Below are positions 8,221-64,000 of a DNA stretch of 64,000 bases, in pieces. The stretch's first letter is position 1; the number at the start of each line of letters is the position of its first letter. Source of the stretch: Vermamoeba vermiformis (lineage: Eukaryota). The translations under genes were made by a program, and so were the position numbers. The stretch is taken from positions 1 to 64,000 of the forward strand of contig JBEWZL010000302.1 of NCBI GenBank assembly GCA_045837725.1, in the 5' to 3' direction. The notes beneath the pieces were generated by a model. It made no database searches and was not told the DNA's origin. It worked only from the letters and a program-made list of their open reading frames with translations.

Positions 8221-8346
8221 TCATTATTTCTGTTAATGCTTAGTAGCACACACACACACACAGACGTAATGCAGCCAAAATGCAATAAACAGGTTTCTTT
8301 CACCAAGTGCAGCCTGTTTGATACACTTTCAGTCCATCCAAGCAGC

Positions 8347-8690
8347 GGGGCATCCTCCACGGATGATACCTTGTGTATTCACTGGTCCTTGTGGGGGAGG
8401 GCGTCCGCCATGGAGGACGCCCTATGTATGTGTTTGTCTAAGCAGGGGAGGGCGTCCTCCATGGAGGACGCCCTATCTACTTATCCGTGCCGGTCTGAGT
8501 GGGGGAGGGCGTCCTCCATGGAGGACGCCCTATGTACGTGCCAGTCTGAGTCGGGGAGGGCGTCCTCCATGGAGGACGCCCTATGTGCATGCTTGTCTCA
8601 GCGGGGGAGGGCGTCCTCCATGGAGGACGCCCTATCTACTTACCCGTGCCGGTCTGAGTCAGGGAGGGCGTCCTCCATGGAGGACGCCCT
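8347..8690. repeat. Array of 26-bp palindromes AGGGCGTCCTCCATGGAGGACGCCCT
   Basis: Copies start at 8347 (degenerate), 8398 (1 mismatch), 8449, 8506, 8557, 8608 and 8665. Periods 51,51,57,51,51,57. Spacers are mutually related and form a duplicated 159-bp higher-order unit. Confidence 0.95.
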
Positions 8691-10047
8691 ATGTACGTGC
8701 CCAACTGACCTCAAAACTCCCAGCCCTAGCCCTATTACCAGTATAATCACGACTGGCTTGATTTCTGTTAATAGGGTCAATCACTGTTGATTCTATACAC
8801 TAGTTGCTCACCTTGGTCCTTGTTCTTGAATGGGTTGAACTGGATCTGCTCGTGGCTGAGCTTGATTGACTTGAGGGGCCTGATTAACCACCATTTGTTG
8901 AGCGATTGGTTGAATTGGAGCTACTGGTTGAACTGGAGCTACTGGAGCAGGGAGAGGCTGAGAAGTAACATTGGTGTTTGACAGGTTGACACTTGACATG
9001 TTGACAGTTGATGTCTGGGCTTGAACAATGCCACTGCTATTAATAGTGTGTGCAGTACCAACAACTTTGGAAGATGAGCAATTGCCACAGGTATTGCAGG
9101 AGCTTTGTGAAGTAGATGTTCCAGTGCCACTGATGACATGTGTCAAGTTGACACTTGACACTTGCGGATCAATAATGCCACTACAAGAACTTTGCTCAGG
9201 CACACAACTAATTATAACATTGTTGATTATTACTTAGTCTAGTTATACTGACAAAGGATCAACTTGATGATACTTACGGTGGAGTTCGTAAATCAGCAGC
9301 AATTTGACCTGCTATCTTTCTGACAGTGTGCTCTTCACGTACTTGACCCTTTGAAGCACTAGAACTGGGCCAGGATGCAAACATCTTGGACAGCTCAACC
9401 TATAAAAAATTAGCAAAAAGTTGGCTTCGTAATGGTCAATACTAACCTCTTCTTTTGCAGCAACAGCAGGGATGCAAATGGAAAGGTGGTTGAGCATTTG
9501 TCTCTTAAAGTCAGAGTCTCGAGTGAAACATGCACTTTTGCACAAAGGGCACTGGATCAGATTGAGTCGAAGCAACTCATTGAGTCGTTGTCTCTTGCTT
9601 GGTGAAAGAAAGTCATCATCCTAGGTTAGCATAGTTAGTATGTGCAGCTAAATGAGAGTACTGATGTGTTTGCGCTTTGATCCAGCTGACCGAAGGTCCA
9701 CCTACATAATGATTGGTTCAGAACACCACTAAAATAGTGATTATATCTTCTCAAATTTTGTTGCAACACCCTTCATATATATGACATAACTCCTGGTTAT
9801 TCAAATAATTTTGATGGGATTTACTTGTGTTAATTCAAGAATGTTCCCATGGCGACCTGCAAAGCTGCAAATAAATTCAACCTAACTCCTAAGAGCAACT
9901 AAATACAGCTGCTGTCATTCCTTTGCGCAAAGAACTAGGATGTTGGTATAAATTTACCCCTGCTTCACTGATCCACTGATATTTGCACTCAGTAAACCAT
10001 GGTGAACAAGAACCAGCTCTTACCTCGTTTGCAAATGAGGTATTCAT
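8689..10047 (-). CDS. Orphan protein with C2HC-type zinc finger and S/T/Q/P-rich C-terminus
   Basis: Exons PSKRQRLNELLRLNLIQCPLCK...MLNHLSIC, ORF 8808-9203, and last exon 8764-8689 ending in TAG at the edge of the palindrome array. 5' exons not fully resolved. Confidence 0.55.
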
Positions 10048-10176: not shown

Positions 10177-11258
10177 TTACACAAGACCAGTATTAAGTGC
10201 TGATTTTATACCACTGTAGTCGCCAAACGGCATTACTAAGCACATTCCACGGCCGTAGTCTTGGCCATCGATGTGTGGCTTTGATATTCCCTCCATATTT
10301 ACAGCCATAGTTTTGAACGTCTCAGTGATGGCACGAATATCACCGTTAACTAATTTGAATCGCTTTTCTAGATTTTCAAAGTGTCGTTCAAACAGCGTGT
10401 CCACGAGTTTAAACAGGCCGATTCTCTTAAGTTCGTCAGCAAAGTCAGCCATTCCTTTCACAGACCGAAGAGATGCAGTAGATACAATGCCTTCTCTTCC
10501 ACCCAGCGGAGTCCAAGCGCCGACATGATAAGACCACGTGTTGATTCCCCCGCGCTCGTGTTTCACAGGTTCCTTTGGATTTCCGTAACGGTCCGTGCAA
10601 AGCCCTTTACGGAATTTAGCCATTGCTTGTTGCACAGCATCGATAACATTATCAGGAATTGCGCCCTTAATAACTTTAAGCAAAGTTCGGTCTTGTCGCG
10701 GGATCCCGGGCTCCTTCCATAAAACTTGCTTGTCGCCGTCGATTACAGTAAATTTTGCAATGTCAAATCGATCTCCATACACTATTGCTTCTTCTTGAGT
10801 TCCCTTCCATACAGGAACTCGGTGGATCGTTAATCGGGAAAAATAACGATCTGCTCTAAAATAAATTTTGCATTAATTATTATAATTAATATATAATATT
10901 CTTACTCTGAATCTCCATCCTCCTCGCAGTCACTCACATAATTGACCGAAAATTGGTCAACATCGCTAACACTAAATTTTTTACTTAATATTGCATTATT
11001 AATAGCCAGTATATTTTTATTAATCATTATTATATTATTATAAATTAATTATTAACTTGCCTCGTCACTACTTGAAGCTCATCTGGAAGATCCAACAGCG
11101 GTGCAGATTCATTTACCAGACGATACAGTAAGCAACGTGCACTCTTAATGATAAATAAAATAAGCACTAAAATTGCAATATACATCATTTGTGGTCGACG
11201 GCCCGATCTCGTAGATAAAATGAACGGCAATTTTTTGGACTTTAACATATAATATCAT
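10177..11258 (-). CDS. TET/JBP-family 2OG-Fe(II) dioxygenase-like protein, apparently lacking its C-terminal part
   Basis: RGGINTWSYHVGAW...FKTMAVNMEGISKPHIDGQDYGRGMCLVMPFGDYSG matches the TET/JBP-type N-x5-6-HxD-x2-D...G-x-Y/F-x-G pattern. Upstream exons splice in frame, one via an AG|GCAAGT GC-AG intron at 10972-11060. No exon with the distal His and 2OG-binding Arg found. Confidence 0.7.
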
Positions 11259-16944: not shown

Positions 16945-18187
16945 ATGTCTGACGAGGAATTGCTGGACTTATTTGATGCAGAACCGGTTTACAATTATAA
17001 AACGGTGCCTAATCCAAAAGATGATTTTGCGGGCTTTAAAACGATTCAAATCACAGTATGTCTTGGTTTTAATTTATTTAATTATCAAAAATATTCTCAT
17101 GATTATTCTTAGGCCGATTTAAATATCGTGTTACCGTCGGAGCTGTGGATGTCGATCTTCGCTTTGCTTTCGGTGGAACCGCACCAAGTGTGGTGGAGAA
17201 TATTATCAGAAGTATCGAAGCACATTAATCACTCGCTCAAGCTGTATTTCAAACGGATCCAATTCTCTCGATTTAATTCAGCAGCAACAATCGCTGGCTA
17301 TTTAGCTGGCGAAGGCTACCTTCAATGCCTCCAATATGCACATGAAAATGGCGCCCGATGGGACGTGATTACATGCATCAGCGCTGCGCAGGGTGGTCAT
17401 TTATCTTGCTTGAAATACGCGCACGAAAATTCTTGCGAGTGGAACGAGGTGACATGCTACTACAGTGCTGCCAATGGTCACATCGAGTGCTTGAAGTACG
17501 CGCACGAACAAGGGTGTGAGTGGACCTTTACGACTATATTTTCTGCGGCCAAGAAGAACAATCTCGAGTGCTTGAAATATTGCTACGAAAACGGCTGTCC
17601 GCGCAAGCCCGAGAGCTCATACCATTATTATGACCAGAATGTCATGTCTATTGCAGCTGGCAATGGAAGTCTTGAATGCCTCCAATACTTGCACGAGCAG
17701 GGCGAATATTGGGACGAGGCTTTGCTTGCTGTAATGACAAGGTTTGGTCATTTAGACTGCGTAAAGTACGCTATCCAACAAGGTAAGATTCTTTCGATCA
17801 ACATCTTCCTCGGGTCTAATTGATGCACGTCTAGGCTGCCCCTATAACAAAGAAACAATATGCTCTCATGCTGCAGATGATTTGGAGTGCTTGATCTACT
17901 TCCACGAGCAAGGACATCCGTGGGATATTGCAAGTTCTGAGGCAGCGCGACAAGGGAACATTGATTGCCTAAAGTACATTCACGAACACGGAGGTGCGTG
18001 GATTGGTGATGAAATAACTTTGGCGTATCGATTCAGTTCGCTGACGTGTCTCATGTACGCATTCGAAAACGGGTGCCCTGTGCCAGCAGATCTGTGCAGC
18101 AATCGAGGCTACTATACACCCCAAGAAATCATTGACTATGCGCATTCTAAAGTCGAATGTACTTGTCCTCCTTACATTTTAGAATAA
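16945..18187 (+). CDS. F-box plus ankyrin-repeat protein (AAxxGHLxCLKYAHENGCxW type)
   Basis: LPSELWMSIF F-box-like start and about 8 ankyrin repeats; two GT-AG introns. Confidence 0.9.
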
Positions 18188-59781: not shown

Positions 59782-60032
59782 TGCTGATCTGTTTGAGTGA
59801 CTGGACCTCGTCATAAATTTATTCAGTTTTCACGTTCTCTTTCTGACCCTGGCAAAATGTACTACAATTCATGTGTATGGAGAACTATAAGGACTTGTAT
59901 ATCATAGTAATTTAGAAGGAATTGACTTGTGGCGGAGATCATACCGGCTGGATTTGCGTTCAAGAATGTTGAAGGCGAAGCGAATAGTCGTAGAATTAAG
60001 TATAGAATGGTTTTTAATGCTGAACGATCTTA

Positions 60033-62968
60033 TTATGATTTATCTGACTCCTTTGTATAATGCCCGTTAACATTTCGTAACGAGCTCGATTTTTTCAGTT
60101 TGTCCATTCTCTGCTCGCCATTATTATTATTATTATGATTAGTGTTGATATGATGATCTAGATTCCTAGGACTAAGAGAGCCGGCTACATTAGTCACCGT
60201 ACTTCCATGCTGATTATGAGATCCTCGTTCGGATTTGCGTTTTTCTTCTTTCGGCGAAATTTCGCTCTCTGTTAAGTCGTATTCTTTTACGGCATATTCA
60301 AATTGCGTAAATCTCTTGGCGCCACCTTCGCTCGCAACAGAGAAGAATTGATCCAGATGCGCACTCGTGTTGAAAGGTTTGTTCAGTAGCAAAGTGTTCA
60401 AATATTCCATAATATTATTGGCGCTCTTCCTTACTTTATGCGATGTAAAATTATGCACTAAATTCTTTTTTGGCGGCTTTGGAATTTTAACTCCAGAATT
60501 TCCGTACGCTACATGCAGCTACAAAACAATCCGAAATTAATACCAAATCATATAAAAACTAATTATAGATATAATATACATCTATTGATAGTATTTTATT
60601 AAATTTACCTGTTCTGAAAGCTCGACAAAATGTTCGAATCTTTTGCTGACCGCTCGGATCGGCTTAACGCCACGGATCAGCAATATCAAATAAATCTATA
60701 ATAATACTATATTAGTATCGTGGCCGGCAGTATTAGTATTAATTATAGTTTGATCGTTGTATAGACTTACTAGGAAGTTTCCTTCAACTGGATGATTCAC
60801 GAGTACCGCTTTGCGAATTTCAACGCGCAATCTCATTTGCTGTAAGTATAAAGCAGTTAATAAAACGATAGTATAAAATCAATACTGTTTAAGTCAATAA
60901 TGACGGTATACATAGTATTTTAACTAAGTTTACGAAAATTATTTTCAAGATAATGGATCGAGCTATGGATGCACGATTGGTGGTGTTTTTAAAAATGAAA
61001 CATATTTCAATGGTATTGGTAATGATAATGTTATGCATAATAGAATTATTTGAGTTGAAAAGTCTTAAAAATTTGGTGCATGCACCCACTTACGCGTTCA
61101 AAATCGACTTCAGCGTTCTGCTGGCATTCATGAATAAACCGCACAATGCCCTTAAATTGCACCAGTGAGACTTCAATGTCTTTTTTGTCCCAATTCAGAT
61201 CATTTGGCACGCGGTCTTTCCACGCTTCTAAATTCGAGATCATGCGTTGAGGTCTGTGACATGGCAGCAGCAAAAAGTCTCCTAATTGGCGTTGTCCAAG
61301 CACTGAATTATTTTCGGCTTTCTATATGTACACATGTTAATATTATGGTTTAAATAGAAATAAATAATCAACTTCGAAATTGAATTTTGCCAGATCCGCT
61401 TTCAATTATTTGATTTTGCTCAAACTTATGAAAAATGTATATTGTATTGTACGAATGAGTAATATTAGGGATTGACAATAAGCATAAACAACGGTCGCAA
61501 CGAGATCTGATGTTCGTATTCAATTTAAGCTTAATTCGTACCTTAATCCAATTTCTGAGCTCTGGATGCGCAAAAGATTTTTTCAAATCAGCCAAACAGT
61601 CTTTTGACACTGGATATTTCTTCATATATTCGACGTACGTTGAAATATATTTTGAGACCTAAAAGTACGAATTAATTAAAACCGATCAATAAGAGCTGGA
61701 GATTTTTAAATATGAAGATAAGATCAGATGGGTGATATATTTGCATTAATTAAATTTAATATTTGAAATTTTTGTAAATTTCGTAACGGATGCAAAAGTA
61801 TTTTTAGATCTGATCCGAAATTTGGCTGTGGAAAAAGTATATAGAGGAATAAATGGATACTTACGATAGCCGCGAATATAGGCTGTATTTTTAGACCAGG
61901 TATCGTTGAATATAATTCAAGATGCGCGATAAATTCTTCCGTGATCTCAATGACTTGCAAAATATTGCCAAAAATTCGTTCAATTTTTTCTTTAGGCACC
62001 AAAACTTCGTCTGTTTCACTAGCGTGCCTCAGTGGCTCGTAAAAATGCTGCAAAAATCGTTAATCAAAGCGAAAAAAATTCGATCCGGTCAAATTGTTTT
62101 TTCAATTTGATTTCAAATTAATTAACCATTAATACAAATCGATATTATAGGTAAGATTAATTATAATTAAGCTATGTAAACTCAATTTAATGAAAGTGTC
62201 ACTTCAATTTTCTATTTTTGGAGTGACAGTATCTTTTCATTTAAATTCAATTGGATCCACCTTAAGTAATTGATCTTCCGCAAAGATACGCTATAGACTG
62301 ATAATATTACTTACTGTAATAAGCAAATTAAGATCTGCATAATAAATTAACTCCGATTCGAGGATTTCTCGGCGCCACCTGAGTTTTTCTTGAACGGCTG
62401 GATCTTGCACATTCTGTTCGTCAGCAGCTGCATATTCTTCATTTTCGTAATTATTACTGCCAGAACCATTTGCAGCATTATAACTAAGCTCCATTTCGAA
62501 AGGATTTTCTGCATCCACCAAATTTTCGTTATTATGGTTTGTATCCTCGTCATTTGATAGTGAATCGGTACTTTGGCGCTTAATATCTGTATAAATACGT
62601 TATTAATCAAATTGGAAATAGCGTAAATTTAATTTTAAATTCACAACCGAAAATCAATTCAGCGATCTGCTCGAGAAATAATTAAAAAATTGTGAAAGTA
62701 TCGCAAAATAATTAAAATACTATATTTAAGTGCTGATTATACCTCTATCTACAAGTTTGGGCATTAGATCGGGTTGGATCGATCCTCTTAACGACGGCGT
62801 GGTTGAAAGTGAGCTTGGATTATCCTCGTCATAGTCCCACCCCTCAAAATATAGTGATGAACTCATAGACGAAGATGATTCCACTGAGCTCCTTCGCGCT
62901 GCAGCAGCTCTTCGGAGAAGTTCCTCCATCTGGCTAGAATTATAAGAAAGATGATTCTGACTCGTCAT
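60033..62968 (-). CDS. RhoGEF (DH) + PX-domain protein
   Basis: REILESELIYYADL, IFGNILQV, FLLLPCHRPQR (DH); SKRFEHFVEL, IPKPPKK, MEYLNTLL (PX). Confidence 0.75.
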
Positions 62969-63246
62969 TTTCGCAAAATAAATAACATAATACAATAAAA
63001 ATAAATAAAAATATTAAATAATACAAGGTGTGGTATATAATACAATGAAGCGCAATAAATGACGTAAGATGACAAGATTTTTTAACGAACAAAAATCTCC
63101 GGTTAAATCTCACTTGAGCTCACTAGATAGGTCTCTAAGATACAATTCACTCAATGTTAGTTAATAGACACGACTATTGTCCTAAGGCCTCGCGTCAGAG
63201 CTCGGATCCAGGAGAGTGGATTTAGATTTGGCTTGGATAAGATCAA

Positions 63247-63983
63247 TTATGCTAAAACTCCAGCGGAGCCTACTTTAGGCACAATAATATGGAATTATAG
63301 TAGTATATATTATATTAGAGTATAGTACAATGTCTTATAATTGAAAATTAATTCAGAAACACAGCCCAGATATTATAAAATAGAATAAATGATTAGATGT
63401 CGCCGATATATTTAATATAAATATAAAATTATTGAATTAAATATTTGGATTATTTATAATCGTCACACCGTTCTCCGTTTCTGCGTTTATGACGTAAGCG
63501 CGTCACAATAAGGGTAAAAAATTGTAAATAGATAAGTTTTTATCTGATCAGTTTGCCGCGATGGCGTTAACTTCGTTGTGATGGCGATTAACTTGCCGTG
63601 ATGGCATCAAACTCATTCAACATATATATTGCCGTGATGGCCACAACCTCACCGTGATGGTGATAACATTGCTGTGATGGCAAAAGACACCCGGTGCACC
63701 TACAGCCGTGATGGCTTTGACTACACTGTGATGGTGTTATCCTGCCGCGATGGCAGTATGATCTCCGTGATGGAGAAAGTGTTCACCGTGATGGTGACTT
63801 CATAGTAAACCCTTGTAATGTAATAATAAAACCAGATCTACTGCTGCAGATCAACACCTCATAAAATACCACTAATATCTTATTGTTATGATATTATGGT
63901 GTATTATAAATTATATTGTACATATTATGATGGATTTGAGCTATATTGGCCAAAATTTAGGCTCCGCTGGAGTTTTAGCATAA
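63247..63983. mobile_element. 737-bp unit bounded by perfect 26-bp inverted repeats (MITE-like)
   Basis: TTATGCTAAAACTCCAGCGGAGCCTA at 63247-63272 and its exact reverse complement at 63958-63983; AT-rich non-coding interior; TSD ambiguous. Confidence 0.55.
63553..63797 (+). repeat. Array of 11 mini-hairpins, core CC-GYGAT-GG with co-varying outer stems
   Basis: ATGG of each core at 63561, 63581, 63601, 63637, 63657, 63677, 63711, 63731, 63750, 63770 and 63791; spacing mostly 19-21 bp. Confidence 0.9.
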
Positions 63984-64000
63984 AACGTCTTGGATATGAA

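Follow-up and report, generated by a model that had tools for sequence, protein, structure and literature searches.

A tandem array of constant-loop palindromes with complementary arms in a possible mobile-element insertion of Vermamoeba vermiformis

The first 64,000 nucleotides of contig JBEWZL010000302.1 of Vermamoeba vermiformis (assembly GCA_045837725.1), referred to here as the window, contain close to their right end an array of eleven short palindromic units, each with the same asymmetric loop. The array forms the central block of a unit of about 740 bp that lies between 40-nt inverted-repeat arms, upstream of a minus-strand gene with RhoGEF and PX domains. A preliminary description of the locus, made from the sequence, had proposed that the array is a small RNA that presents hairpins to a protein. 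We examined the array, the unit around it and the adjacent gene computationally.

Anatomy of the array and pairing of its arms

The motif GYGATGG was found 20 times in the window, against 9.35 ± 2.8 expected, and none of 100 shuffles reached this number. Eleven of the matches make up the array on the + strand, with cores at 63558, 63578, 63598, 63634, 63654, 63674, 63708, 63728, 63747, 63767 and 63788; the other nine are scattered over both strands outside it. Hence the core scan recovered all of the eleven mini-hairpins with a constant loop that had been reported. Their spacing (20, 20, 36, 20, 20, 34, 20, 19, 20, 21) was reproduced exactly, and every one of the co-varying stems listed earlier was present in the sequence. 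In each repeat unit of 20 bp, a 15-nt palindrome with an asymmetric GYGAT centre is joined to a linker of some 5 nt. Nine units have the loop GTGAT and two have GCGAT, so that the second loop position is the only variable one.

When the eleven units were aligned as 29-mers, the mean column identity was 67%. Six columns of the core were invariant (G-GATGG) and one more, a C at the second position 5′ of the loop, was nearly so. An invariant core at this mean identity is not what whole-unit homogenisation or neutral drift would predict. The GG of the right arm was kept in 22 of 22 cells compared to 18 of 22 for the CC of the left arm, a difference that fits a GYGATGG recognition core.

The TRF program detected a 20-bp period across the first 2.7 units only (77% matches), and blocks of 39 and 54 nt within the array repeat at 61–76% identity. 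From this it follows that the array grew by duplication of blocks of two to three units and is a degenerate tandem repeat of 20 bp. The linkers, which had been called unrelated, are partly homologous by these same measures. It may be noted that the uniform head-to-tail decay of a plain minisatellite was not observed; decay has spared the core and removed most of the linkers.

The 5-bp stem was paired in 51 of 55 arm cells (92.7%), compared with 75.8 ± 3.2% in shuffles, none of which reached the observed value in 500 trials. When the partner was slid by one to three columns, pairing was 29–76%. From the loop outwards the pairing rates at stem positions 1 to 5 were 100, 100, 100, 91 and 73%. Position 1, next to the loop, is C-G in eight units and U-G in three, and position 2 is C-G in ten and U-G in one. 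Position 3 is G-C in seven units, A-U in three and U-A in one. Position 4 is C-G in five, U-A in three, and A-U, U-G and unpaired in one each, and position 5 is U-A in six, A-U and C-G in one each, and unpaired in three. Extension of the stem by three positions gave pairs in only 1, 4 and 3 of the 11 units (9–36%); therefore, the stem ends sharply at 5 bp. The deviations from pairing had been described as T-G only. Five T.G cells were indeed found, together with four true mismatches (T-T twice, T-C and C-T), and it is the mismatches that are confined to stem positions 4 and 5.

Changes on both sides of a pair were found in 10 cells, compared with 2.4 ± 1.5 in shuffles (0 of 500 reached this number). 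Private double changes of the transversion type occurred in unit 10 (stem position 3), unit 7 (position 4) and unit 8 (position 5). A star-tree simulation was also carried out, in which the observed arm substitutions numbered 31 or 34 depending on the ancestor assumed. Here 10–12 compensated cells were observed against 1.4–3.4 expected, and none of 20000 runs reached the observed value. The pairing count and the simulation support the observation of the preliminary description that a constant asymmetric loop is carried on short arms kept complementary through compensating changes.

Because the units are paralogues, duplication of an already compensated hairpin makes it count double; units 5 and 11 have identical arms. 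The argument that simple duplication cannot yield covariation was thus overstated, as duplication of a compensated hairpin copies both arms. Raw pairing and double changes exceeded all shuffles, but two measures that are robust to relatedness (given with the interpretation below) were not significant. Arm complementarity is very probably kept by some process, and the statistical case for this is moderate, not overwhelming.

A difference between the strands was also examined. Every one of the five wobble cells reads T.G on the + strand, where the minus strand would have A.C, and the reverse was not seen; this bias has P ~0.03 (one-sided). Folded alone as + strand RNA, all 11 units formed the pentaloop hairpin (−2.7 to −7.7 kcal/mol, sum −52.3). 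As minus-strand RNA, 8 of 11 did so (0 to −8.3 kcal/mol, sum −48.5), while two widened the loop and one stayed unfolded. The whole + strand folded at −89.5 kcal/mol (z = −2.94 against shuffles) and the minus strand at −75 kcal/mol (z = −1.21). The minimum-energy fold retained 2 of the 11 local hairpins on the + strand and about 6 on the minus strand. The + strand preference is real but slight. Of the statement that deviations are tolerated only on the + strand, a mild bias remains, in the wobble cells and in the number of units that fold; the four true mismatches do not agree with it. CpG decay had been named as a possible full explanation of the T-G pairs. For the window the observed/expected ratio of CpG was 1.10, and for 62100–64000 it was 1.18, so there is no general depletion and CpG decay is not the general driver, though it may have acted locally.

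The surrounding unit, the adjacent gene and expression

The inverted-repeat arms on either side of the array are 85% complementary, and their outer 25 nt match perfectly (Table 1). The local alignment score was 58, compared with a shuffle maximum of 37, and the 20-mer core of the inverted repeat occurs in the window only at the two arms. TA stands directly outside both arms. Located 4–5 nt outside the arms is an 11-nt direct repeat that matches at 10 of 11 positions, a level reached by 0.475% of 20000 random window pairs of the same size. The longest ATG-started open reading frame (ORF) of the unit has 42 aa. Terminal inverted repeats and a small size without coding capacity, both found here, are among the marks of a miniature inverted-repeat transposable element (MITE). 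The position of the array between inverted repeats that have direct repeats outside them supports the earlier suggestion that it may be mobile. Besides the inverted repeat itself, no similarity of the unit to other parts of the window rose above chance.

The palindrome upstream of the array and the AATAAA downstream of it were both located as had been reported. A scan for terminator-like structures returned one, compared with 0.5 ± 0.8 in shuffles; this is not significant, and a scan of bacterial type is not meaningful for a eukaryote.

Table 1. Coordinates of the array, the surrounding unit and the nearest exon in the window
Feature	Position	Strand	Remarks
5′-most RNA-supported exon of the RhoGEF/PX gene	62743..63081	-	from RNA depth and X7 contigs
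Left flanking direct repeat	63232..63242	+	11 nt; possible target-site duplication
Left inverted-repeat arm	63247..63286	+	with its own small palindrome
AT-rich internal segment	63287..63490		without an ATG-started ORF of at least 30 aa
16-nt palindrome	63491..63506		TGACGTAAGCGCGTCA; 5-bp arms, 6-nt centre; called promoter-like in the preliminary description
Array	63553..63797	+	11 units of 15 nt (5-bp arm, GYGAT, 5-bp arm)
Array units 1–6	63553-67, 63573-87, 63593-607, 63629-43, 63649-63, 63669-83	+	
Array units 7–11	63703-17, 63723-37, 63742-56, 63762-76, 63783-97	+	
AATAAA hexamer	63825..63830	+	28 nt past the array; AT-rich surroundings, no RNA 3′ end seen
7-bp stem-loop, then T-rich stretch	63835..63852	-	terminator-like
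Right inverted-repeat arm	63944..63983	-	with its own small palindrome
Right flanking direct repeat	63989..63999	+	window ends at 64000

The window is eukaryotic in character, with many exon-sized ORFs that carry Ras, RhoGEF, PX and ankyrin domains, and only four ORFs of at least 200 aa under the bacterial code. Pfam placed the RhoGEF and PX domains of the adjacent gene in minus-strand ORFs at 61727–62059 and 60036–60518. For comparison with expressed and environmental sequence, the region 60000–64000 was matched at a likeness of at least 90% with two RNA-seq runs of the same species label (X16 and X18), a water metagenome (X4) and a probable transcriptome of a close relative (X7). RNA depth for the RhoGEF/PX gene reached the bin 62948–63081, and pieces of X7 contigs covered 62743–62909 and 62896–63046. 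Spliced RNA joints end in CT..AC, that is, GT..AG on the minus strand. Measured from the transcribed 5′ end of this gene, the unit starts about 150–190 bp upstream and the array lies about 470–510 bp upstream.

None of the sequencing runs listed as carrying the stretch was recorded as RNA. In X16 and X18 the depth was zero in all bins from 63484 to 64000, while the exons of the neighbouring gene were covered at about 1–25x. The bin 63350–63483 showed a depth of only 0.31 (X16) and 0.14 (X18). No X7 contig extended beyond 63046, though the neighbouring gene was covered. Thus, transcription of the array into RNA, as the preliminary description had it, found no support in these data. Little weight can be given to the lack of X16 and X18 reads between genes, since both runs are from a diverged strain, in which the insertion may be missing or the sequence between genes may not reach the likeness threshold. 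In addition, the libraries are apparently unstranded (similar depth on both mate orientations), and short or non-polyadenylated RNAs may be lost from them. We consider the zero depth over the array as mild evidence against an abundant polyadenylated transcript.

The X4 matches were low-coverage pieces of the same organism over the whole 4 kb and not a widely shared element. One identical piece of 151 nt (63163–63313) spans the left inverted-repeat boundary.

Two further observations were made on the adjacent gene. Over 60000–63081 the same-label RNA-seq differs from the window by 5–10% even in exons, and the species label seems to cover clearly diverged lineages. In reads of X16 and X18, position 60500 is joined to 60609 with 18 extra letters in between, a possible micro-exon or strain-specific replacement in the RhoGEF/PX gene.

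Elsewhere in the window, a minus-strand ORF of 231 aa (10177–10872) gave no Pfam match at E up to 0.01 and had one homologue (64% identity) among 5.8 billion proteins. Its nearest Atlas clusters carry PF12851 (Tet_JBP) in 31–63% of their members, and it may encode a divergent Tet/JBP-like dioxygenase. At 8221–8790 (+), two overlapping open frames contain about six tandem copies of a peptide of about 17 residues, a coding-like or minisatellite repeat. Ankyrin-repeat ORFs at 17113–18187 (+) have closest Atlas clusters that are mostly from Nucleocytoviricota and green algae, which hints at giant-virus-related ankyrin families.

Searches for relatives of the array

Rfam gave no match in the window at the gathering score. 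At E up to 10 there were three chance-level matches (E at least 1.8), of which two belonged to Dictyostelium snoRNA (small nucleolar RNA) families with 17–19 bits against a gathering score of 80, and these were rejected. With a best E of 1.8, the array was not identified with a known RNA family.

A search of viral contigs for three GTGATGG motifs at a period of 19–21 returned 69 loci, all of which were period-21 or coding-type repeats without paired arms. Among the matches listed for the three-unit pattern (at least 120 metagenome and at least 119 prokaryotic loci), none resembled the array. The nearest look-alikes among those listed (L091/L163, L189, L132 and L173) were plain minisatellites with constant arms. 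As a separate observation, L091 (707–940) and L163 (11249–11480), from a eukaryote-like metagenome contig, hold a 20-bp minisatellite with a GTGATGG core and weakly pairing constant arms; the resemblance was judged coincidental. Hairpins with the same loop were not enriched elsewhere in the window (5 compared with 2.9 ± 1.9 expected). The literature, covered in part, held nothing relevant on a GUGAU pentaloop or on MITEs with internal tandem repeats and hairpins. The array is thus a single locus, an orphan with no relative among the matches listed.

Possible nature of the array

Our preferred reading, which we hold tentatively, is that the array may be a module of a mobile element with repeated sites for protein binding, and may act at the DNA level. 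The non-coding unit of about 740 bp would be a MITE-like, non-autonomous DNA-transposon insertion in a promoter-proximal position to the RhoGEF/PX gene. The palindromic units would be repeated binding sites for a nucleic-acid-binding protein that serves the element, such as a transposase, a Rep-like protein or a host factor, and this putative protein would read the invariant GYGATGG core. Binding of something to the core is suggested because an invariant asymmetric core beside drifting linkers implies a sequence-specific constraint. The arms change and yet stay complementary, as expected if they form hairpins in a single strand or if mutation keeps remaking the palindrome. In the former case the + strand, while single-stranded as DNA, would display the site on a small hairpin; in the latter, template-switch repair would keep restoring the palindrome.

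Like MITEs of the Tc1/mariner or Mutator type, the unit has terminal inverted repeats, is small and lacks an ORF. Tc1/mariner-type elements duplicate TA and Mutator-type elements a long target; here TA outside the arms would fit the one and the 11-nt repeat the other. It differs from both in that its two candidate duplications conflict, and in its internal hairpin array, which was not found described for these families in a partial search of the literature. An architectural parallel is provided by the HINE/DINE-1 and Cg_HINE/pearl elements, which, according to PMC4067079 and PMC7492417, are non-autonomous and non-coding, with inverted repeats near their ends (sometimes palindromic) and tandem repeats and palindromes at their centre, and often lie near genes. 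The present unit likewise has central tandem repeats between its two arms. On the other hand, the subterminal repeats of these elements measure 11–13 bp, compared to arms of 25–40 nt here, and their central repeats are microsatellites or monomers of about 140–180 bp, compared to 20-bp hairpin units here. They also have a palindrome after the 3′ repeat and insert at TT without target duplication; in our case only 5 nt follow the right arm, the stem-loop is internal and there is a direct repeat in the flanks. A Helentron that could act as partner of the unit is not known. The most economical home for the array is nevertheless a transposon variant with a central repeat block, and the feature itself is real and unusual.

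Several points weigh against a mobile-element module that acts as DNA. The 11-nt direct repeat stands apart from the inverted repeats, and the TA/TA and 11-nt readings of the target duplication are mutually exclusive. A transposon is defined by its multiple copies; only one copy of the unit is known, with no second copy in the 64-kb window, and an exact search with the inverted-repeat 20-mer gave no match in metagenome and viral contigs, a search that diverged copies would escape. Cut-and-paste transposases bind double-stranded DNA, where the covariation of the arms has no obvious role. Moreover, known subterminal repeats that bind transposases are found at both ends of an element, and here eleven units lie in the interior in one orientation. 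As + strand single-stranded DNA, 10 of the 11 units folded as expected alone, but the 5-bp hairpins were marginal in stability (−0.8 to −4.9 kcal/mol, sum −33.0). The evidence for maintained pairing also has its limits. The relatedness-robust measure gave 3 both-side-changed pairs compared with 1.7 (reached by 92 of 500 shuffles), and that of further pair types gave 9 compared with 6.9 (21 of 500), neither being significant. For three or more transversion-type compensations, P ranged from 0.0001 to 0.096, varying with the transition share (0.33–0.8) and the ancestor. Finally, the silence over the array comes from runs of a diverged strain, whose matched reads were mostly only 90–95% alike (207 of 261 in X16 and 209 of 277 in X18).

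Somewhat unlikely, but the first of the alternatives, is a neutral origin, in which the array is a decaying, functionless 20-bp minisatellite whose palindromes were made and repaired by template switching during replication, with one arm copied from the other by hairpin priming, and whose compensated blocks were then duplicated, which would inflate the covariation seen. The degenerate tandem repetition in blocks of two to three units agrees with it, and so do the relatedness-robust measures that failed to reach significance and the single locus with no relatives found and no RNA seen. According to PMC8794818, template switching can fix a stem in one step while retaining the loop, and it would pass through U.G intermediates whose pyrimidine lies in the 5′ arm. 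The array resembles such hairpins in its compensating arm changes, its retained loop and its wobble cells, all five of which have T in the 5′ arm, fitting the C-G → U-G → U-A route of that paper. The same paper describes a mutational process and not an element, and grades the evidence for the maintenance of short stems as circumstantial. Template switching does not account for a core of 7–9 nt that is invariant in eleven units beside drifted linkers. The sharp boundary of the stem, with so few pairs at positions 6–8, and the exclusion of CpG decay as a general driver also speak against a neutral relic.

It is clearly unlikely, in our estimate, that the array represents an undescribed eukaryotic class of mini-hairpin arrays, with a fixed GNRA-like pentaloop and co-varying 5-bp stems on a single-stranded + strand. 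Such a class would be either a multivalent protein-binding RNA borne by a mobile element or a eukaryotic equivalent of the bacterial single-stranded DNA hairpin sites of the REP/attC type, working for a rolling-circle (HUH-type) or replication protein. Bacterial arrays of repetitive extragenic palindromes (REP) and bacterial interspersed mosaic elements (BIME), and the attC sites of integrons, consist of short palindromes that keep their structure better than the sequence of their arms, and dedicated enzymes read them as single-stranded DNA. The present array is similar in being a series of short palindromes whose structure is conserved beyond the arm sequence. It is unlike them in that they are prokaryotic and longer, and no look-alike was present among the prokaryotic loci listed.

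In the model of the preliminary description, the + strand gives rise to an RNA of about 300 nt, non-coding or belonging to an untranslated region, that acts with up to eleven pentaloop hairpins as a multivalent platform or sponge for an RNA-binding protein. This model is unsupported and equally improbable. Several of the results above lean in its direction, namely the folding of all eleven units alone as + strand RNA compared to eight on the minus strand, the five U.G cells with no A.C, and a + strand that beats shuffles where the minus strand does not. The loop varies only at its second position, and both versions open with a tetraloop sequence that we take to be of the GNRA class; a palindrome stands upstream and AATAAA downstream. 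Against these stand the absence of array reads in X16 and X18 and of an X7 contig beside an adjacent gene that is expressed, the lack of an Rfam match better than E = 1.8, and the absence of enrichment of same-loop hairpins elsewhere in the window. The wobble bias is weak in statistical terms, and the optimum fold of the + strand keeps fewer local hairpins than that of the minus strand, its energy of −89.5 kcal/mol being lower than the sum of −52.3 kcal/mol for the isolated units. CsrB/RsmZ-type sponge RNAs, to which the array had been likened, likewise string together many short hairpins that expose one constant motif and are set apart by variable spacers. They are bacterial, however, and are defined by GGA loop motifs for CsrA/RsmA; their transcription has been demonstrated and their protein partners are known. 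In the present case the loop is GYGAT, the host has genes spliced at GT..AG and Rfam gave no match. Repeat-bearing long non-coding RNAs of eukaryotes, such as the A-repeat of Xist, resemble the array in their tandem short hairpins or motifs with a constant exposed motif, but they too are established transcripts whose partners are known.

Slightly less probable again is a cis-regulatory module of the host, that is, eleven double-stranded transcription-factor sites (GYGATGG) that form an enhancer or silencer borne by the insertion, for the RhoGEF/PX gene or for an unseen gene past the end of the window. The distance of the array to the RNA-supported 5′ exon would suit such a module, as would the invariant asymmetric 7-nt core with its better-kept right GG, and a spacing of about 20 bp, near two helical turns of DNA at 10.5 bp per turn. 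Co-variation of the arms is not explained by a monomer that reads an asymmetric core, however, and a symmetric dimer would conserve the sequence of the half-sites, not their complementarity. Nor is GYGATGG enriched elsewhere, since the nine other matches compare with 9.35 expected for the whole window. A chain of TGATG stop-start mini-ORFs, also raised earlier, was rejected, as it holds only at the exact period of 20, its frames break at the periods 19, 21, 34 and 36, and its peptides show no relation to one another.

Should the array prove to be a neutral minisatellite, it would show cleanly that palindromes can stay complementary without selection, and it would bear on the trust that can be placed in covariation among paralogous repeats as evidence for RNA structure. 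If its units are structure-specific binding sites, the array is a compact protist example of a constant loop on interchangeable stems. It would then indicate an undescribed protein that reads pentaloop hairpins, and a mobile element that has brought eleven of its sites beside a gene.

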